The position numbers were made by a program, and so were the translations under genes. A DNA stretch of 53,453 nucleotides from Escherichia virus TH37: the sequence record MT446409.1. One strand, written 5' to 3'. The notes under the pieces were generated by a model, which searched no databases, was not told the origin of the DNA, and worked only from the letters and a program-made list of their open reading frames with translations. This document shows, in pieces, positions 11,600 through 53,453 of the stretch (position 1 is its first letter; the number at the start of each line of letters is the position of its first letter).

Positions 11600-12546
11600 T
11601 TGAACAGCCTTCCTTTAACCGAGGACAGTGGAGATTCAAGTTTGGCAAGTTTGTCTTTCAACGTACCAAGTTGACTCACTGCCGTAGCACCTACTGCACC
11701 CAATCCAGGAAGAGAAATGCCAGCACCACCAAGAGCACCTATTCCAGCACTCTGTGCAATCTTTGCAAACTCTGAATAGTCTGTCATTGATTGCATTGCT
11801 TTTCGAGCTTCAATTGCGAGCGTATCTTCTCCGATAACTTGCAACTCTTCGACTGTGATTTCAACAGCCAATATTGCAGAAGTCATCTTGTCGGTTTTGG
11901 TTCGAATGCCTGTAACCACGCAATTCAAATAAGGTCCAACAATTGTAGAAATGTACAGCTTGGTTCCGTTTGCCCGAAAGCCATTAAACAATTCGTAGGT
12001 AGATTGGATTCGGTTGCTTGTTTCAAACGCAGAAGCAACAGCACCAGCAGCAGAGCCTAAGATTGGTATGATTGGGTTATTAAAGATTGCACCAGTTGCA
12101 ACAGATAGACCTTGTACCGATGCAGTCCACATGGCAGAGTTCTGCATGTTGGAAGCAACAGCAGTTAACTTAAGGACTCGGTTATGTTTGATGATGTGGT
12201 CACTGACTAAGAAGCCAGAGCTTACAGGAAACTTAGTAACTGTAGACTGCGCATCATGTTCTTCACTAACCATTGCATCAAACTTGAAAGAGTTAAAACT
12301 CTCTGGTGCATCTGTGGTGACAAGTGATTCCATTGCCTTGGATATTCCACCAAAGGCTTTGCCAAACAACCCTTCATCTTCCTTCTGTGCAACTGGCCCA
12401 TTAGACCACATAATTACGGACGGGTTGTGTCCATAACTAAAAGCCTTTGTTAGCGTGGAGATTCCATCGCCCAACAAACTTGTATCAATTAATGCCATTA
12501 GAAAGACTCCATCGACATTCCACTGTTTAAATACATTTGCTGCCAA
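11596..12546 (-). CDS. Putative baseplate hub protein (Mu gp44 / P2 gpD-like)
   Basis: 316 aa; position after tape measure and circulation-like gene. Confidence 0.35.
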   Translation of the reverse strand: MAANVFKQWNVDGVFLMALIDTSLLGDGISTLTKAFSYGHNPSVIMWSNGPVAQKEDEGLFGKAFGGISKAMESLVTTDAPESFNSFKFDAMVSEEHDAQSTVTKFPVSSGFLVSDHIIKHNRVLKLTAVASNMQNSAMWTASVQGLSVATGAIFNNPIIPILGSAAGAVASAFETSNRIQSTYELFNGFRANGTKLYISTIVGPYLNCVVTGIRTKTDKMTSAILAVEITVEELQVIGEDTLAIEARKAMQSMTDYSEFAKIAQSAGIGALGGAGISLPGLGAVGATAVSQLGTLKDKLAKLESPLSSVKGRLFK

Positions 12547-13670: not shown

Positions 13671-16600
13671 TTATCTACGTTCCATTGCACCATTACCCAT
13701 GTTGATTGTTTGGGTAACAGTTTGACCGTTAGGAGTTGACACGGTTGCAGACGCTTGCTTGTTGTTCACAGTAGCTTTGACTTCAACGTTAACTACAGTG
13801 GCCTGGGTCTGACCATAAGACAGTCCATTTCTGGTGAAGCCAGTTGCACCTTCCGCAATAGAATCGCCCTGAGAAGCCCATTCACGGTACTTCTTGACGC
13901 GGTTCTGTGCCTGTAGAGGAACAGCATTGAGCCAGTCGGTTCCGTGTTTGTTGATAGCATCATCAACAGTTCCAGCACCATCCGTATACGCCGCCATAGC
14001 CTTCTCAGCGTCACCATTATAACGCTTGAGCATTGCATCGTAGTAGTCACGACCAACGCGAGCACGCTCTTCCAGAGAGTTATCACGGGCAGGTGTAACG
14101 CCAAATCCTGGGTCACGGGAAGTTGAATCAAGAACTTGCATACGACCTTTAGCACCAGTCGGTGATGTGACTACCGAACCGTCTGCGTTCAAATCGCGGT
14201 TCCCTGACTCTTCTCCTGCGATAAAGTCATAAACATTACGTTCTGCATCGGCTGCACCGTTGGAGGTCATACGCATCACTCTGGCTGCGTCACCGCCTGC
14301 CTCAATAAAGGTGCTGCCGTATGAGATTGCAGCTTGCGGAACAGCGTAACCAGGCAATACCCCAGCACGCTCCGTCTGCGCGATTCCTAGCTGTGCAACG
14401 CCTTCGGCATAGTTTGAGTCGGCCCCACGCTGAACGTTCTCCTGAGCCTCGCCCATGCTGTATTCTGTGCGGTCATAGGCACGAGCCATGCCGTCCAGTC
14501 CAGCCATTTGCATAGCGCCAGCGATACGCGCCTGACTCCAGCCCCGTTCCTGACCACGTTCACGCATTACCCGCGCTAAGGTCACAGGGTCGCCCTGTGC
14601 CTGCCTAATGTCGCCAATGGTGATAAGGCCACGGGTTCCCTGAACAATGTTCACAGCGCCGCTGGGGTCGCCATTTAGGAGGGTGTTATAGGCACTATGT
14701 GTGGTTTGATTCAGTCGGTTGGCTTGCTGGGAATTAAGTCCTAACATCTCCATGCCCTGTGACATAGAAGAGTATTCGTTAGGATTATTTACACCAGCAT
14801 CTAACGAATTGCCATAGAAGTCGTTCAGACCTTCCAGAGCTTCGTTACCAATTTGGGTAGCACCAATAGCCATACCAGCGACACGACCCCACGGAGTCAT
14901 CATCATGGCATTCATAGCGCCATTGGATAAAGAGCCAATACTGCCACCAGCTACGCCAGCAGCTAATGCCCCACCCATGCGACCGAAGTCATCGCCAAAA
15001 CTGCCACCAGCTTGCCACCCACGACGCCCACCACCGCCACCAGAACCACCACCGCTAATGCCATAGCTACTAGCATCAATGTTGTCCCAGAAGCCGCCTG
15101 AGCGCCCACCGTCGCCACCGCCGAAATCTGCATCCTGACCACGGAGCTTGTTTTCTTCCTGTGCTGCGAGGATACCTTTCTTAACTGACACTGCCATCAG
15201 GTCATTGCCAGTTGTGCTATCAGCGCCAACAGCAGAGGCTGTAGCAGCACCAACTCCAGCATCGGTACGGTTGCCTATGAATGGGTCATCAGGTGTGCCA
15301 GCAGCAGGAGAGTAGCCACGATTTGACCTCTGCTTAACATCCTTCCACAGGCCGTCACCAGTCATGGCAGCACGAGCACCCTTGATTAAATCATCATTGG
15401 ACAAGTCTGGATTAGCTTCAACAAACTCTCGACCAGCATTAAGACGACCAATAACAGAATCAATCTTATCTTTGTTGCGGTCGTACCATCCTTCATCCTT
15501 GTCAATCCACTCCGACTTCGTGGTATCGCCGATGGTTTGAGAAAACAATGCGCGCGAACGACCAGATACAAGCATCCCAAATTGAATTTGGTCCATGTAA
15601 TCTTTATGGTCACCCGCAGATAAGTTGGCAAACTTGCCAGCCCTTTGAGGGTTCTTGTGTTCCCAAATCGCGTCATCGCCGATAAGACCATCTGGGGAAT
15701 ACATGAACGACGGATAATTGTCATTTGTAATTGCGCCAGCTTGCTCAATGTCGAATCCAAATTCTTTGGCTACACGGTTACGAGCAATTTCTTCAGTTCG
15801 GTGACCAGCTTCGAACATTCTTTGGGTAAATTCGCTTGGTCCTTTTCCGCGTTGCAGGCCAACTTTATCAACCATTGCAGCCCAAGGTCTGGTATATTCG
15901 TTGTTGCCAAGGAATGAACCAACAGTTGAGCCTGTAATGTCATATTGTTTACGGAAGTCTAACCACTCCTGAGTACCCTGTTCCATATTATGAAACTTGA
16001 TTGGGCCTTGTTGTGGTTCAGGCTGAGGAACAGCGGAATCCAGGTTTGCGATTGCAATGCTCTCACGACGAGAGCGAGCAGAGTTCCAACTCGTTGGTGA
16101 ATCAAGCTGTGCAATAAACTCTGTAGATGGATTTAATTCAACAGGTCCAGTGTTTCTTAGACGTTCAGCAGGGTCGAAAGTCTTACTGATTTCAGCTTCA
16201 TTATATTGGTGAGCATTCTCAAGTACACCACGAATAGATGCACCAGAGTAACGAGGGTCATCACCAATATCTTTCTTTAGGTTGTCATAACCAGAACGAG
16301 CATCTGCAAGGTCTGTATAACGAGATGCAGAATCAAGAATCAAATCTCGGTCAGAAGATTGAGTGCGATATGCGTTCATCCCCCGTTCTGAACCACCAGC
16401 ATATACCTTAGCAGCAGATTTAACTACGCCAGATACATCTTGATATAAAGATTTACTTGCATCAGACCAACCTGGGGAGCCAGATAATGATGCAGATAAA
16501 GAATATTCAGCTTTAATGCCAGAACCCATAGAGCCTAAAGGTAGGCCAGATGCGTTAAGCGGTTGTCGGGGATGTTGAATATCACCAACAATAGATTCAG

Positions 16601-17345
16601 AACCAAGTTGAGGAAGAGAATCCATGTATGAAACTCTTGGCCCCGACTTATTACCTACATTCATTGCAGATACAGCAGCAACTTCACGGAAGTTTTGCGG
16701 CAATTCTGATTCTAAACGTTTGGCTACACGATAAACATCTCGTGCATAGCGGTCTGGGTCGTCATATTGTTGACGGTCAACATACATATGAGCAAGATAG
16801 CCCATAGATTTGGCAATATCTCCACGGTTTGTAGAGTATTCACCCATAATGTCACCAGCGTAATGACCAGGAAGTTCCGGCATTATATCTTGATGACCTG
16901 CCAGCGTATCACGCATGTACGCATTAAGCATTCCCCAATGACCTTCTGGTTTGTTTGGGTTTGCTTTAGGCATGTGCATCCACACATCATCGGTGGATAC
17001 ACCTAATTTCTCCATGTAGGCATGAACAGCTTCTACATGGTGACTTGGACCGTTCATTGCAGCATGGAATGTTTCAGTAAGCCCAGCACCAGAAATCATC
17101 TGTGCAACGTGAGCTGAGTCTGAAATCATGTCGGAAGTGCCATAAGAGATGCCATCATCTTCTGTATAGGTTTCTTCCATAAGCTGTGAATTTGTTTCCA
17201 TCCAACCAGAGGCAGCACTTGATTCAAGTTGCTGTGCCATATCTCGTTTGCGCATACCTGGATTGAATGACAGACCATATTGAGCACCTAAGCCAATCAA
17301 TTCGGCTTCGGACATTCTCATTAAATCTTTTATGTTATTAGCCAT
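13671..17345 (-). CDS. Tape-measure-like large tail protein with internal lambda-Exo/YqaJ nuclease domain, Gly-rich segment and C-terminal lytic transglycosylase domain
   Basis: 1224 aa between GT chaperone and baseplate genes; residues ~450-640 QGTQEWLDFRKQYDITGSTVGS...SPDGLIGDDAIWEHKNP...YMDQIQFGMLVSG collinear with lambda Exo; residues ~1040-1130 EESGNRDL...GAKGRMQV SLT-like. Confidence 0.6.
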   Translation of the reverse strand: MANNIKDLMRMSEAELIGLGAQYGLSFNPGMRKRDMAQQLESSAASGWMETNSQLMEETYTEDDGISYGTSDMISDSAHVAQMISGAGLTETFHAAMNGPSHHVEAVHAYMEKLGVSTDDVWMHMPKANPNKPEGHWGMLNAYMRDTLAGHQDIMPELPGHYAGDIMGEYSTNRGDIAKSMGYLAHMYVDRQQYDDPDRYARDVYRVAKRLESELPQNFREVAAVSAMNVGNKSGPRVSYMDSLPQLGSESIVGDIQHPRQPLNASGLPLGSMGSGIKAEYSLSASLSGSPGWSDASKSLYQDVSGVVKSAAKVYAGGSERGMNAYRTQSSDRDLILDSASRYTDLADARSGYDNLKKDIGDDPRYSGASIRGVLENAHQYNEAEISKTFDPAERLRNTGPVELNPSTEFIAQLDSPTSWNSARSRRESIAIANLDSAVPQPEPQQGPIKFHNMEQGTQEWLDFRKQYDITGSTVGSFLGNNEYTRPWAAMVDKVGLQRGKGPSEFTQRMFEAGHRTEEIARNRVAKEFGFDIEQAGAITNDNYPSFMYSPDGLIGDDAIWEHKNPQRAGKFANLSAGDHKDYMDQIQFGMLVSGRSRALFSQTIGDTTKSEWIDKDEGWYDRNKDKIDSVIGRLNAGREFVEANPDLSNDDLIKGARAAMTGDGLWKDVKQRSNRGYSPAAGTPDDPFIGNRTDAGVGAATASAVGADSTTGNDLMAVSVKKGILAAQEENKLRGQDADFGGGDGGRSGGFWDNIDASSYGISGGGSGGGGGRRGWQAGGSFGDDFGRMGGALAAGVAGGSIGSLSNGAMNAMMMTPWGRVAGMAIGATQIGNEALEGLNDFYGNSLDAGVNNPNEYSSMSQGMEMLGLNSQQANRLNQTTHSAYNTLLNGDPSGAVNIVQGTRGLITIGDIRQAQGDPVTLARVMRERGQERGWSQARIAGAMQMAGLDGMARAYDRTEYSMGEAQENVQRGADSNYAEGVAQLGIAQTERAGVLPGYAVPQAAISYGSTFIEAGGDAARVMRMTSNGAADAERNVYDFIAGEESGNRDLNADGSVVTSPTGAKGRMQVLDSTSRDPGFGVTPARDNSLEERARVGRDYYDAMLKRYNGDAEKAMAAYTDGAGTVDDAINKHGTDWLNAVPLQAQNRVKKYREWASQGDSIAEGATGFTRNGLSYGQTQATVVNVEVKATVNNKQASATVSTPNGQTVTQTINMGNGAMERR

Positions 17346-17972
17346 TGTCTTCTTCTTTAGGTTTTAATTCATTACGCAAATCAAGTATTGCGTGGAAGGT
17401 CAACAAATCCATAATAGAGTAGGTCCCATCTTGTAACTCTTTAAGAGAACAGAGTGAACTGTCCTCTATTACAGGACGGTGCAGGAAGTATTTTATTTCC
17501 GGGAACTTTGCAGTTAAATCGTTTCCGGACTCGAATTCTTCTGCTCGGCCATCTTGGATGCTTCCACCGCCTCCAATCGTCTGCGTTCGTTGAGTTCGAG
17601 CCCTTGCTTGAAAAAATCAAGGAAGTTCGATTCCAAAACAAATGCAAATACATGGTGCATGAGCATCAAGTTGCCGTTGTATTTCATCTGCATAGTGCGT
17701 GGAGTAACTTCGACACCATCAATGGTTGCCATACACACTACACGTTTAATTAATTCTGTTACTTCATTGCTCGTCCCACCTTGCTGCATTAAATAAATAA
17801 TGTCTGCAAAGTTATATTTATTCTCAACGAACGGGAAGATTGAAGTTCCGAGTTTCTGAACAAGCTCGACCTGGAGGTCAAGAGCCTGGCTGGCACCCAA
17901 TTGACGAGTACCAACCAAGACAACATCACCAGAGTCGGCTTGTAACTCGCGTTGACGAAGTTCACAAGCCAT
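17338..17972 (-). CDS. Tail assembly chaperone GT-like fusion made by programmed -1 frameshift at 17610-17616
   Basis: Heptamer T_TTT_TTC in the G frame; the -1 frame is open for 89 codons and its stop overlaps the tape measure ATG (17343-17345). Confidence 0.5.
17514..17972 (-). CDS. Tail assembly chaperone (gpG-like, short form)
   Basis: 152 aa between tube and tape measure genes; contains slippery TTTTTTC near 3' end. Confidence 0.5.
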   Translation of the reverse strand: MACELRQRELQADSGDVVLVGTRQLGASQALDLQVELVQKLGTSIFPFVENKYNFADIIYLMQQGGTSNEVTELIKRVVCMATIDGVEVTPRTMQMKYNGNLMLMHHVFAFVLESNFLDFFKQGLELNERRRLEAVEASKMAEQKNSSPETI

Positions 17973-17987
17973 GCTCTTACCTTAATG

Positions 17988-18443
17988 TTATACGCCGATT
18001 TCTGGATACTGACCAGTTACGATGGTGAGGCGCTCTACAAAGATAGCCCACATGTTGGATGTAAAGGTTACACCACGAACAATAGCAGGCTGTTGTAGGA
18101 TTGCACCGTTAACACCGTTAACCAATACGTCGCCCATCTTGTCAACCAATTGCAACTGCAAAGGTTCCCAGAGGGATTTGTTACCAGACAAACCAGTTGC
18201 ACGAGTAAGCTGTGCACGTTGGTAAAGGATTTCGTTCCAATCTGCCGTTTGCAGCAGTGGGAAAGTAATAACCCCAGACTGGTCAGCCGTGGTTGCTACA
18301 GCAAGTTTGCCGTAAGCATCCATAACAGGAACATGCTGTGGCACGTTGTAGCGTGCCGTAATTACAGATTGCCCTGCTTGAAAACCGTCTACACGAGCAC
18401 CGTCAATCAGGAGGTCTGTATTATAAAACGAATATTGCTTCAC
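17988..18443 (-). CDS. Tail tube protein
   Basis: 151 aa immediately downstream of sheath gene. Confidence 0.5.
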   Translation of the reverse strand: MKQYSFYNTDLLIDGARVDGFQAGQSVITARYNVPQHVPVMDAYGKLAVATTADQSGVITFPLLQTADWNEILYQRAQLTRATGLSGNKSLWEPLQLQLVDKMGDVLVNGVNGAILQQPAIVRGVTFTSNMWAIFVERLTIVTGQYPEIGV

Positions 18444-18452
18444 TGTTCACCC

Positions 18453-19901
18453 TTACTGAATGAAGTTGCCAGAGATTACAGCACCCTGGATTGCACCGGA
18501 ACCGATAGCAATAAAGGAAGTACCTTCCCAAATACGTTCACCCTTCTGCGACTGCAAGAGTTCTAACGGAGTCGAGATAACTTTGTAGCCTTCTGGATAG
18601 AAGGTGCCTTCGTTATCATAGCCAGGGGCAATGAGGCCGTTAGTCTTAGCGAGTTCGAGCGCCAGGGTTACTTGCTGGTTAACCATTGCTACACCAGTGT
18701 CCGTCCAAGGAATCTTGGTAGTGGAGGTGTAGAACAAGTTGAACACATTCAGTCGAACTTTCTGAGTCAGCCATTCAACACCCTGTACGGAGTCGAACCA
18801 CGTCCCATCAGCCATACGACCATTGAAGAACATGGTGTTACCAGCAACAGAAATGAATGCGTTACCGCCACAAGCCAGCAGTGCGCTTACCTGACCAGAA
18901 GACAAGTCAGCAGTGGAGATACCTGGACCTTTCTTGTATGCCAGAATGAGAACGGAGTTTGCAACGTTGAAGTTAACAGTCGATGCACGACCCAGGATAG
19001 AAATTTCCGGATACTCATCACCATTCGTAGAAGCATCGTAAACACACAGAGTGTTACGCAGGTTCTGGTTCTTAGCACGACGGAAGCTGTTATCAGTGCC
19101 GTTGACAAGAATGTTCTTGTCGTTATCACCCCAGCCAAATACTTTGCGGGATGCTTCACACCACTTCGCCACAGACATTTGGTTGTCTACTGGAGAGGTT
19201 TTGCCACGATACTGGCGGTCAAGGCCTACATAGAAGAAGTTGAATGGAGCATCTGCAATATTAGACAGGTCAGAAGAAATAGACAATTCGTTCTTACCAG
19301 CAACAATGACTGCGCTGTCAGAAGATTGCAGTTTCAGTACTTCACCAACTTTACCACCAACGTTGCTGATAGTTGCGTTGATGCCAGTTGCAGAAGTGGT
19401 CAGCTTGAACTTGCCAGCTTCCTGGGTAACAGTTACGCCAGCACCAACAGAGGACAGTGCGGTAGTTACCAAATTTGCAACTCCGTCGAAGTCTTCAGCA
19501 GAGGAGAAATCAATCGGGTCAGTAACATACTGAACACCGCTAACACTTAGCTGCAATGTTGCAGCAGTTTCCAGCTTAATCGTTGCCAGTACAGCAGCAG
19601 TTGCAGCAGTAATAGTGGCAGGAGTTGCTGGAGTCAGAGTATCATACTTGATAGCGCCGACCAGGAAAGTCTTCGGAGTTGGCTTCTGCGAGTACCAAGA
19701 GGTAGCAGCTTTAGCAATCTCACCACCAGGGAAGTCTGCAAGAACTTCTTTCAAGCTGGTGTAAGAGCGAACCGGATATACATCAACGGTCGGTACAAAC
19801 TCTTTGCTCAGGAAGAGCAACGGCCCAAAACCATCAGTCGCAATGGCGTTCGGGGAGATTGCGATATCAACCTGAACTAAGTCGGAAATTGGGATTGACA
19901 T
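18453..19901 (-). CDS. Contractile tail sheath protein
   Basis: 482 aa, size and position (sheath-tube-chaperone-tape measure order). Confidence 0.6.
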   Translation of the reverse strand: MSIPISDLVQVDIAISPNAIATDGFGPLLFLSKEFVPTVDVYPVRSYTSLKEVLADFPGGEIAKAATSWYSQKPTPKTFLVGAIKYDTLTPATPATITAATAAVLATIKLETAATLQLSVSGVQYVTDPIDFSSAEDFDGVANLVTTALSSVGAGVTVTQEAGKFKLTTSATGINATISNVGGKVGEVLKLQSSDSAVIVAGKNELSISSDLSNIADAPFNFFYVGLDRQYRGKTSPVDNQMSVAKWCEASRKVFGWGDNDKNILVNGTDNSFRRAKNQNLRNTLCVYDASTNGDEYPEISILGRASTVNFNVANSVLILAYKKGPGISTADLSSGQVSALLACGGNAFISVAGNTMFFNGRMADGTWFDSVQGVEWLTQKVRLNVFNLFYTSTTKIPWTDTGVAMVNQQVTLALELAKTNGLIAPGYDNEGTFYPEGYKVISTPLELLQSQKGERIWEGTSFIAIGSGAIQGAVISGNFIQ

Positions 19902-23481: not shown

Positions 23482-24432
23482 TTATAAAGAGTTGAAGCGT
23501 TCTAAACGACGTTTGTTAGCTTCTTCGGAAATAGAAACTTTAGGCTTACGAGCTTCTGAATCTTTCTGAGCAGTAAATTGCATAGATTGATTCAGGGCAT
23601 CGCCCAAAGTAATGGAATCACAATCTTCAAGTGCTGCATCGAAACGAGCGGAGATATAATCTTCACTCTTGTCGCTGAAATCCTTGTCATGCAATTTATT
23701 AACTACAGCCAACTTAACTTCCGAATCGGACTTGCCGGAGAAATCAAGACTGGAGAACTCGTCGCCAAGACGGGCCACATCAATGAGAAGTGCTGTACGA
23801 GCAACAACACGTTTGTCTACCTCAGCCTGAATGGCTTCATCGGATAGTCGTGCAGTTTCTGCATCAGCAAGTTTCTGCTCAAGGGTGTTAATCTTGTCAA
23901 GCGCTGCATCACGCTCTGCTTCAACAACATCAAAGGTTGCCTTATCAACAATGGAAATCTCTTCACCAGAGTCACCAATGCGAGTAGTCTGAGCACGACC
24001 ACGAACAACAATTGCAGCATGGTTAGGGATAATACGAACTTTGTCGAAGTCTGCATCAGCATCTTCTGCAACAGCCAATTCTGCATTATGGCCTAGGGAG
24101 ATTTGGTCAACACCAGAATCAACTAGTCGAATAGCTTGCTCGTCATTCAAAACGATTGATGCAGCCAAGAAAGAGCCGTCTGCAATTGGACGACCTTCAA
24201 TAAACCCTTTCTGGAGTTCTTTGTTGTTCTTGATATTGACGTCATCTTTTGGATGACCGATAGTAACCGGAATTGAACGACAACCTTCAATGGTTGCTTC
24301 ATCAAATAATACTTCCGGCTTGGTGCGAACACGGCAAATAGATTCTGGGTCCAGATGTTTTGCAATCTCACCAAGTTCTTTCGCTTTGTACAGCATAATG
24401 CCAGTACGAGCGATGGTGCATTCTGCAATCAT
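23482..24432 (-). CDS. Putative scaffold / prohead protease-like protein (start uncertain)
   Basis: Long acidic coiled-coil-like ORF between portal and capsid genes; the listed ORF start at 24720 overlaps portal by 205 nt, so an internal ATG at 24432 is proposed. Confidence 0.35.
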   Translation of the reverse strand: MIAECTIARTGIMLYKAKELGEIAKHLDPESICRVRTKPEVLFDEATIEGCRSIPVTIGHPKDDVNIKNNKELQKGFIEGRPIADGSFLAASIVLNDEQAIRLVDSGVDQISLGHNAELAVAEDADADFDKVRIIPNHAAIVVRGRAQTTRIGDSGEEISIVDKATFDVVEAERDAALDKINTLEQKLADAETARLSDEAIQAEVDKRVVARTALLIDVARLGDEFSSLDFSGKSDSEVKLAVVNKLHDKDFSDKSEDYISARFDAALEDCDSITLGDALNQSMQFTAQKDSEARKPKVSISEEANKRRLERFNSL

Positions 24433-45131: not shown

Positions 45132-45406
45132 TATTTGCCCTTTAACGCATCGTTTAAAGTGTTGTTTAACAGTGTGTTGAGGTTATCAAGTTCATCAAAT
45201 GCTGCCTGAGCCTTGGTAACTTCATCAACAAGTAATGCTCGAAGAACTGCATGCTCAACAAGCACCCATCCGTCGATACAGTCAATGAAAACTTTAACTT
45301 TATCAACTGGAGCATTTAAATCAAAGGCAGATAAGTCGGATTTGGCATTATCCAGCTTACCTTTTGCCTTACTTAGTTCAACTGGAACTTGGTCTATCGA
45401 AATCAT
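45131..45406 (-). CDS. Hypothetical protein
   Basis: 91 aa. Confidence 0.3.
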   Translation of the reverse strand: MISIDQVPVELSKAKGKLDNAKSDLSAFDLNAPVDKVKVFIDCIDGWVLVEHAVLRALLVDEVTKAQAAFDELDNLNTLLNNTLNDALKGK

Positions 45407-52012: not shown

Positions 52013-53453
52013 TTATTGACAGAAGTAGTAAGCGTGTTCGCTCATCAGAAGCTCTTCAGTAACAATGTTCTCATGGTACATGTTGATGCCACCAAGTTGC
52101 TTAGACAGAGATTCAAACTGATTATTGTGAACAAAGATTTCAACATAAGCAGAACGAATTACTTCCATCATTTTAGGAGCATCAGCTAAGCAGCAACGGA
52201 AACAATCGTGAATTGAAGTAAAGCCACGAAGACCAGCTTCTTTAGCTTTGACTGCAACAGTACGAGCAACCAATGCGTCAATACCTTGAATGTAGTTAAC
52301 AACGAAGGTACGCTTGAATTCTTCTTTAGTTGGGTTGGACTCACGAATGGTCCAAGGCTTATTCTCCTGAATCTGACCAAAGATAACACGAGTTTGAGAG
52401 TCAACACGAATGCTGAATGCCTCACAGATTTCACGAGATGGGAAGCAAGGCTTCATTACAACCTGACCATCAGTGTGACGATATGTGATGTACTCTTTAC
52501 CAAGTTCAACACAACGATTGTATGCAGCATCAGCAGCTTTCTCGATGAACATGTTAATCTTAGCACCCAATGCGTTATGGATTGCTTCTACACAAAGTTC
52601 AGCAAATGCTTCTGCTTTCTCAACAGGAATCTGGAGAGATGCTGTCATGTATGCAATGAAGTCAGAAGAACCAGTTAATGCAGCTTTACCACCACCATAT
52701 TGGATAGCCATGTATGGAGTTTTGATAAACTTACGACCAGCTTTCGGATTCAAGAATTCATCCATGATTTCAGCAGATGGTTTCATTGAAGAACGGTCAA
52801 GCAACTTCAACAGTTCACGAAGAGATAACTGGTATGGGTCAGATGCTTTAGTTGATGAATCAACCAGACCTGTTGCACGAGCCATCTCCATGTTACCAGC
52901 AATGAATGCCAGATATTGAGTACCAGAACATTTAGCATCTAAGCCAAAGCCTACACGAGAATCGCATTCACCTGTAGTCTCAAACTTGAACCAATCCAGA
53001 GCCAGACGAACATAAGTGAATGGCTTAGAAGGACGTTCAGCTTTAGGCATGTTCATCATGCGAGCAAGTGAACCAGCTGGATTCTGAGCAACATAAGTTA
53101 AACGCTTAGCAGAAGTCCAGTCTCCACCGGAAATATCTTCCAGCTCTGCCATAAACATGTTGTATGCAATGGTAGTAGAACCATCTTCGTTAAACTTCTT
53201 AACGATGTTCTCAACATTGTGAGAATACAAGCAACGAGCAAAGTCAGATGATTGTGGGTTAGGACCAGCACATGCTACATGGTACAGACGACCACGGTTA
53301 TCAGCAAAGTAGTCAGAGAACAGAGTGTCCTGACCAACCATTGCTACAGCATTGTTCCAAACATGGAGTTCAGTCTGGATTGCTTCTGGCATCTGCAAGC
53401 CACCATAAGTACGTTGTTCAATCATAGACTGGATGATGCGAACCATCTCAGTC
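52013..53453 (-). CDS. T7-like single-subunit RNA polymerase, C-terminal part (N-terminus beyond the window end; matches 1-1217 across the repeat)
   Basis: DNRGRLYHV, motif A-like GLDAKCSGTQYLAF, motif B-like KTPYMAIQYGGGK, motif C IHDCFRCC collinear with T7 RNAP DWRGRVYAV / DGSCSGIQHF / MTLAYGS / IHDSFGT. Confidence 0.85.
   Translation of the reverse strand, partial: TEMVRIIQSMIEQRTYGGLQMPEAIQTELHVWNNAVAMVGQDTLFSDYFADNRGRLYHVACAGPNPQSSDFARCLYSHNVENIVKKFNEDGSTTIAYNMFMAELEDISGGDWTSAKRLTYVAQNPAGSLARMMNMPKAERPSKPFTYVRLALDWFKFETTGECDSRVGFGLDAKCSGTQYLAFIAGNMEMARATGLVDSSTKASDPYQLSLRELLKLLDRSSMKPSAEIMDEFLNPKAGRKFIKTPYMAIQYGGGKAALTGSSDFIAYMTASLQIPVEKAEAFAELCVEAIHNALGAKINMFIEKAADAAYNRCVELGKEYITYRHTDGQVVMKPCFPSREICEAFSIRVDSQTRVIFGQIQENKPWTIRESNPTKEEFKRTFVVNYIQGIDALVARTVAVKAKEAGLRGFTSIHDCFRCCLADAPKMMEVIRSAYVEIFVHNNQFESLSKQLGGINMYHENIVTEELLMSEHAYYFCQ

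Follow-up and report, generated by a model that had tools for sequence, protein, structure and literature searches.

The tail assembly chaperone gene of Escherichia virus TH37 (sequence record MT446409.1), a Chaseviridae myovirus, very likely undergoes a programmed -1 ribosomal frameshift of the lambda G/GT type, as judged from its sequence and from the comparison with related phages. An earlier note, made from the letters of this DNA, had pointed to a TTTTTTC site of the G/GT type in the chaperone gene. Our analysis supports this assignment: the identity of the protein family, the register of the heptamer, the open -1 frame, its conservation and its coding signal all agree. In the following, the window designates the whole stretch of DNA that was analysed (53,453 nucleotides), the G frame is the zero frame of the chaperone gene, and the T frame is the -1 frame that is predicted to extend it.

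The minus-strand letters at 17619..17605 are TGATTTTTTCAAGCA. In the chaperone ORF they are read as GAT TTT TTC AAG, corresponding to D119, F120, F121 and K122, and the heptamer spans the third base of codon 119 to codon 121 of 152, in the 3' part of the ORF. This reading, as well as the TGA that the earlier note had seen just before the site, was confirmed on the minus strand (Table 1). Such a TGA abuts the slip site in close relatives only, and the remaining genomes have a -1 frame whose open stretch begins 3 to 54 nt farther 5'. Downstream of the site the -1 frame had been described as open for 89 codons and as ending with a TAA that overlaps the start codon of the next gene. The frame is indeed open, with a count of 90 sense codons after the slip (92 if counted from the TGA), and the TAA does lie at the start of the downstream gene. 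However, it does not overlap the ATG (17345..17343) but is found 3 nt past it, at nucleotides 6 to 8 of the downstream ORF, and it is the final two T-frame codons, AAT GGC, that include this ATG. The predicted fusion amounts to 121 + 90 = 211 amino acids (23.8 kDa), and not to the approximately 240 first suggested, whereas the chaperone alone has 152 amino acids and a mass of 17.2 kDa. The extension had also been said to lack a start codon, and the earliest ATG, GTG or TTG is in fact codon 67 of its 90 codons, within a conserved motif.

Table 1. Coordinates of the predicted recoding site and of the surrounding features in the window
Feature	Position	Strand	Remarks
Tail sheath gene	18453..19901	minus	482 aa; Pfam DUF3383, E 2.8e-56; annotated as sheath in relatives
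Tail tube gene	17988..18443	minus	151 aa; directly upstream of the chaperone gene; annotated as tail tube in SSEM1 and PYps23T
Tail assembly chaperone gene, short form (G-like, TAC-N)	17514..17972	minus	152 aa; TAA at 17516..17514
TGA closing the -1 frame	17619..17617	minus	Directly 5' of the heptamer
Predicted slippery heptamer T_TTT_TTC	17616..17610	minus	Correct X_XXY_YYZ register; zero frame GA[T TTT TTC]
Predicted -1 frame extension (T-like part)	17338..17610	minus	90 sense codons (17610..17341) and TAA (17340..17338)
Predicted dual-coding overlap of G frame and T frame	17514..17609	minus	31 G-frame codons and stop
Candidate stem, 5' arm GGGCUCGAA	17595..17603	minus	Starts 6 nt 3' of the heptamer; statistically unsupported
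Candidate stem, 3' arm UUCGAGUCC	17527..17535	minus	Within the T-frame codons for EFES
Tape-measure-like virion protein gene	13671..17345	minus	1224 aa; Pfam YqaJ at aa 460-596, SLT at aa 1059-1135
Predicted tryptic peptides			Junction of the fusion, YNGNLMLMHHVFAFVLESNFLDFFQAR; zero frame, YNGNLMLMHHVFAFVLESNFLDFFK (...NFLDFFK)

According to the proposed mechanism, the majority of the ribosomes would terminate at the zero-frame TAA and produce the 152-aa chaperone. A minority would pause on T_TTT_TTC, with one tRNA-Phe at TTT in the P site and another at TTC in the A site. Both tRNAs would then move back by one base to pair with TTT TTT, and CAA would be the next codon read, which would yield a 211-aa protein that comprises chaperone residues 1-121 followed by the 90-residue extension encoded in the -1 frame. 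By analogy with lambda, the efficiency of the slip would set a fixed ratio of the short to the long form. The tape-measure protein would be coated or bound by the N-terminal residues common to the short and the long chaperone, while the tube protein would be recruited or bound by the extension, so that first the tube and then the sheath polymerise to the right length; neither form of the chaperone would remain in the virion. The sequence of the heptamer is compatible with such a slip. In the work of Sharma et al. on all heptamers in E. coli, U_UU.U_UU.C and U_UU.U_UU.U shifted at more than 0.1% without a stimulator (PMC4066793). Motifs of the type H_HH.U_UU.Y are among the most efficient ones in bacteria, U_UU.C being the second-best A-site tetramer (PMC4066793), and therefore the variant G_UUU_UUC carried by Erwinia phage Faunus would work too. 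No protein, reporter or ribosome-profiling evidence of a frameshift in TH37 or its relatives was found in the Chaseviridae literature that we searched.

The short form is identified as a tail assembly chaperone by its matches to Pfam Phage_TAC_15 (PF21822), with a score of 55.5 bits where the cut-off is 22, and to PHROGs phrog_11820, with an E value of 8e-58. At the level of the fold it agrees weakly with HK97 TAC and YqbN. A sequence search of the PDB with the chaperone profile gave no matches, and a Foldseek search against the PDB gave none at E <= 0.001. The genes on the minus strand follow the order sheath, tube, chaperone and 1224-aa protein, an order shared by all the annotated relatives that we examined and by the Hafnia loci. 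The tube protein has a weak match, below the threshold, to Pfam KPP10_Orf10. In PYps23T, 4HA13 and SSEM1 the homologues of the 1224-aa protein carry the annotation 'tape measure protein', and the one of 4HA13 has been seen in virions by LC-MS/MS (PMC9699118). The window also encodes a T7-like single-subunit RNA polymerase (PF00940). Scans for Rfam families over the whole window and for tRNAs gave no matches.

The slip site was compared in 70 related loci, 51 of which are distinct. They come from GenBank phages (L001-L023, 21 records) and from IMG/VR contigs (L024-L069), covering both Chaseviridae subfamilies, Shantouvirus and more distant uncultivated or metagenomic phages with a chaperone identity of 22-30%. 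The heptamer is present in the same register in all 51 distinct sequences, as TTTTTTC in 45 of them, as TTTTTTT in five and as GTTTTTC in one, that of Faunus. The Phe-Phe pair is encoded by TTT-TTY in all 51, and TTC never comes first, in a genome that prefers TTC over TTT for Phe (294 vs 219 codons). The codon that precedes the pair ends in T in 50 of the 51 sequences, whether it specifies Asp, Ser or Ala (GAT, AGT, GCT, TCT). The T-run is thus kept at synonymous sites, and therefore selection acts on the nucleotide sequence.

The -1 frame itself, in which the earlier note had suggested looking for stop codons in related phages, is open as far as the downstream gene in all untruncated loci among the 51 distinct ones. 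Its length varies from 77 to 110 codons in the complete loci, one further locus (L063) being cut by the end of its contig. Where the downstream gene is contained in the locus (48/51), the stop of the -1 ORF lies from -26 to +23 nt relative to the start of this gene. The +1 frame was also considered and rejected: it closes 1-66 codons past the chaperone stop, at a distance that differs from genome to genome, with no conservation.

A run of six T residues could also slip during transcription. The host polymerase or the single-subunit enzyme of the phage would then add one U at T6, and the resulting mRNA with U7 would encode the same 211-aa protein. The site is indeed a homopolymer run (T6 here and T7 in five distant relatives), which is extended by the third base of the preceding codon being held as T, and the window provides a polymerase of the PF00940 family. 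Runs of UUUUUUU and AAAAAAA have moreover been discussed as prone to this type of slippage (PMC4066793). Since the 211-aa product is the same by the ribosomal and the transcriptional route, sequence analysis cannot tell them apart. However, the runs are short, with exactly six T in 45 of the 51 distinct sequences, five in Faunus and seven at most. Programmed transcriptional slippage in bacteria typically occurs on runs of A or T that are about 8-9 residues long or longer, a length that is reached neither by the T6 of TH37 nor by the longest run, T7, among the 51 relatives. In addition, the run is not lengthened, as the next base is C in 46 of the 51, giving the efficient A-site motif U_UU.C. 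The exact X_XXY_YYZ register, which a polymerase does not need, is always kept, although this is a weak point because the Phe-Phe pair also fixes the register. We consequently regard transcriptional slippage as unlikely. If, against this low probability, the phage's own polymerase did insert the U at T6, this would represent programmed slippage in which a T7-like enzyme acts on a run shorter than usual, perhaps occurring also in the GTTTTT-bearing chaperone genes of Vandenendeviridae and Andersonviridae.

The coding properties of the extension are in line with a frameshift. In the extension, a variable linker that is basic and Gly-rich (QARARTQRTQTIGGGG...) precedes the conserved motif FPEIKYFLHRPVIEDSSLCSLKELQDGTYSIMDLLTFHAILDLR. 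Across the relatives, the consensus of this C-terminal block is FPxIxYFLHRPxIEDSSLCxLxELQDGTYSxxDLLxFHxILDLR (45 residues). When the conceptual fusion was used as a tblastn query, 109 phage records matched, and the related phages listed match as two pieces in two frames. Within the conserved block, which lies beyond the chaperone stop, the nucleotide entropy at the three codon positions is 0.96/0.56/1.58, as is usual for coding sequences. In the chaperone gene, the third-position entropy of the G frame is about 1.4 upstream of the slip site and about 0.5 from this site on. From codon 132 (codons 132-141) the most variable position is position 2 of the G frame, i.e. the wobble position of the T frame. 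Because of this collapse of the G-frame variability and the switch of the wobble position, we conclude that the -1 frame is under selection at the protein level from the slip site on.

Protein families were also found for the extension. It matches phrog_4364 with an E value of 9e-18, a group of unknown function built from small-ORF fragments in the -1 frame. Pfam DUF6889 (PF21829), a profile of 40 positions, reaches 13.8 bits (E 0.049) on the T segment of the window, against a gathering score of 23.9. The T segments of relatives score 35.7 bits in ctfzr933, 29.4 in ZPAH14, 23.9 in SSEM1 and 21.1 in the contig L053, and the motif of the window aligns column for column with these segments. Among 5.8 billion clustered proteins, the fusion had 26 matches, all of them chaperone-only proteins of about 150 aa, and no natural in-frame G-T fusion was present. 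With the extension as query, the same protein clusters gave four matches, all fragments of 51-73 aa.

The extension might instead be a separate small gene located in the -1 frame, with its own and possibly non-canonical start codon. Small CDSs ('hypothetical protein', 30-73 aa) are annotated at this place in PYps3T, Shi_2KOFFS, GJ1, PM1, Myduc, ZPAH140, SppYZU05 and pAh6-C, and such annotated CDSs make up phrog_4364. However, their annotated starts differ in position between genomes. An ATG, GTG or TTG upstream of the conserved block is absent in 21 of 24 genomes, and in Pantoea phage SSEM1 the whole extension is devoid of these codons, while the first possible start in TH37 falls inside the motif. 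The coding constraint on the T frame also starts right at the slip site, inside the chaperone gene, and the heptamer is kept at synonymous sites. A separate gene thus appears highly improbable.

We also searched for RNA elements that could stimulate the ribosomal frameshift. A candidate stem of 9 bp (Table 1) closes a 59-nt loop and is present in both the MFE and the centroid structure of a 95-nt fold. This fold is no stabler than shuffles (z = -0.73), and in a 181-nt fold (z ~ -0.7) the stem is gone; over 22 lineages the mean folding z is -0.7. In Loessnervirus-type relatives, which have a different linker, the 3' arm is missing despite an unchanged 5' arm. The duplex energies of the arms showed no consistent advantage of own over cross-genome pairs. 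Pair counting on a 20-sequence alignment gave no covariation of the stem, with a score of 0.087 vs 0.082 for shuffles and 140 of 500 shuffles as high. With this z score of about -0.7, no covariation and the loss of the 3' arm in some lineages, the stem is not claimed as a functional stimulator. No Shine-Dalgarno-like element was seen upstream of the heptamer on reading the sequences. Compact hairpins are found at +7 to +9 in four distant relatives (L060, L067, L068 and L069). The heptamer itself is probably the main determinant of slippage.

In-register X_XXY_YYZ heptamers are not rare, as the approximately 15,900 codons of the window contain 52 of them. The presence of the heptamer is therefore not significant alone and was discarded as evidence by itself; the weight lies in its context and in its conservation in relatives. 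From a random in-frame codon of the window the -1 frame remains open for a median of 7 codons, and it is open for at least 90 codons at 3.3% of the in-frame positions only, mostly by running into the next gene. A mere coincidence, with a heptamer that lies by chance beside a frame open by chance in an intergenic gap of 170 nt and without any recoding, would fit the number of heptamers and the unremarkable downstream folding energy, but it can practically be dismissed in view of a -1 frame that stays open as far as the next gene in all untruncated relatives, even at a chaperone identity of about 25%, of the coding periodicity, of the strongly conserved 45-residue motif and of the rarity of open frames of this length.

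The conserved frameshift in tail chaperone genes is reportedly the classic arrangement, and gpG and gpGT of lambda are said to be such a pair of products. Lambda slips on the heptamer G_GGA_AAG, which differs from the T_TTT_TTC of TH37. The organisation is otherwise alike: in both phages the chaperone gene lies directly upstream of the tape measure gene, the -1 slip is located on a heptamer near its 3' end, at least by prediction in TH37, and the -1 ORF has no start codon and ends at the tape measure gene. The fixed ratio of the two forms would also be shared. The G/GT arrangement is widely conserved in long-tailed phages; the tape measure protein of lambda is bound by the G part and its tube protein by the T part, and the two products are made at a ratio of about 30:1 (PMC5009743). 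Unlike lambda, TH37 is contractile-tailed and lytic, with a T7-like RNA polymerase. The lambda-type chaperone family is absent from the Pfam matches of TH37, the N-terminal part belonging to PF21822 and the T part of the relatives to DUF6889, not to the T family of lambda.

Phage P2 reportedly produces the pair gpE and gpE+E'. Its slip heptamer is TTTTTTG. As in TH37, the tail is contractile, the chaperone pair is encoded between the tube and tape measure genes, and the -1 shift is assigned to a T-rich heptamer, which ends in G in P2 but in C in TH37. The efficiency of the P2-type shift is 2- to 3-fold above that of lambda (PMC5009743). Similarity to P2 was not detected at the protein level, as no P2-type family is present among the Pfam or PHROGs matches of TH37, and the TH37 sheath is of the DUF3383/E217_gp31 type, not of the P2 FI type.

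A TAC-N/TAC-NC frameshift was proposed in 2025 for Pseudomonas phage Adele and other Vandenendeviridae and Andersonviridae (PMC12846349). Like TH37, these phages are lytic myoviruses with a region between the chaperone and tape measure genes that is routinely labelled 'hypothetical protein' (PMC12846349). Close to the 3' end of TAC-N they all share the poly-T motif GTTTTT without variation, and all their genomes keep the -1 frame open (PMC12846349); the argument is a comparative one there as well as here. The weak KPP10_Orf10 match of the TH37 tube protein hints at a tail module related to that of the Adele group. In contrast, the Adele group belongs to other virus families, and TH37 keeps the full canonical T_TTT_TTC and not only GTTTTT. 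A tblastn search with the TH37 fusion found no match to the chaperones of this group at E 1e-3.

In T4-like phages, separate genes encode the short and the long chaperone, according to PMC10274946, which summarises the work of Vladimirov, Gautam & Davidson (2022). T4-like phages are myoviruses that need both a short and a long chaperone form, as TH37 is predicted to do, and they differ from it in that TH37 and the 26 database homologues have no in-frame long form.

None of the 21 GenBank records of Chaseviridae-type relatives inspected carries a slippage annotation in the form of a joined CDS. In the records, the 3' part of the extension appears as assorted 'hypothetical proteins', or else a gap of 170 nt is shown there. 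We found no report of this frameshift in the Chaseviridae papers that we searched, nor any phage paper that cites TTTTTTC as the slip site of a tail chaperone. The predicted frameshift is an unannotated case, for the Chaseviridae, of the familiar G/GT arrangement, and as such unsurprising to a specialist. As the mechanism is a textbook one, the main value of the present analysis lies in annotation and assignment. The predicted frameshift corrects the gene models of a family with many candidates for biocontrol and therapy directed against E. coli, Erwinia amylovora, Pectobacterium, Aeromonas and Yersinia, and it suggests a probable role for phrog_4364 and Pfam DUF6889. It also provides a clean comparative set, in which one heptamer is found across chaperones that are about 25% identical, suited to the study of U_UUU_UUC slippage without an obvious stimulator. 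Finally, the T6 slip site and the DUF6889 extension may be an ancient module shared by myoviruses with a DUF3383-type sheath. If so, DUF6889 and phrog_4364 would represent the tube-recruiting 'T' domain.

The gene in tape-measure position encodes a protein of 1224 aa in which a central YqaJ-like nuclease/recombinase domain (aa 460-596, E 9e-13) is accompanied by an SLT transglycosylase domain at the C-terminus. Its naming differs between GenBank records, where it appears as tape measure, tail fiber, tail tube initiator, exonuclease, endonuclease or 'T4 gp5 analog'.

Among the IMG/VR loci, seven (L060-L062, L064 and L067-L069) bear distant chaperones that retain the T6/T7 slip site, with a different motif in the extension (W[RS]L...ATLxELxxxWSLDD...). 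A compact hairpin starting 7-9 nt 3' of the heptamer was found in four of them. Some other in-register slippery heptamers of the window lie close to gene ends (see table), and past them the -1 frame stays open over 133-309 codons, most likely just because the following gene occupies that frame.

Further features of the window
Feature	Position	Strand	Remark
1224-aa protein gene, tape-measure position	13671..17345	-	
Single-subunit T7-like RNA polymerase gene	52013..53446	-	PF00940
In-register heptamer TTTAAAC	12525..12531	-	few codons 5' of gene end
In-register heptamers AAAGGGT/GGGTTTA	24201..24210	-	few codons 5' of gene end
In-register heptamers TTTAAAC/AAAGGGC	45137..45158	-	few codons 5' of gene end

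The RNA polymerase gene reaches to within 7 nt of the end of the window and appears truncated at the N-terminus. Probably the window represents an entire genome, with its ends in or beside this gene. The tube gene CDS measures only 336 nt in Shigella phage 2KOFFS (L001, 1178-1513) and in the PYps23T RefSeq record (L022, 649-984), probably as a result of mis-called starts, since the full 456-nt ORF (17988..18443 in the window) is annotated in other relatives. The record 'Staphylococcus phage Pel53' (PP952070.1, host Staphylococcus hyicus) is as similar to this group of E. coli/Yersinia phages as Carltongylesvirus coliphages are, with 74% in the chaperone region; its host label looks doubtful.

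A Chaseviridae-like structural module was observed in two Hafnia alvei assemblies, GCA_002206365.2 (L070) and GCA_016103045.1 (L071), inside contigs 4.8 Mb and 1.6 Mb long, and IMG/VR locus L045 is the same element. The module comprises capsid, sheath, tube and chaperone genes together with a homologue of the 1224-aa protein in which both the YqaJ-like and SLT domains are present, and its chaperone gene keeps TTTTTTC with the -1 frame open. Because Chaseviridae are described as lytic, this element may represent an integrated or otherwise resident relative.
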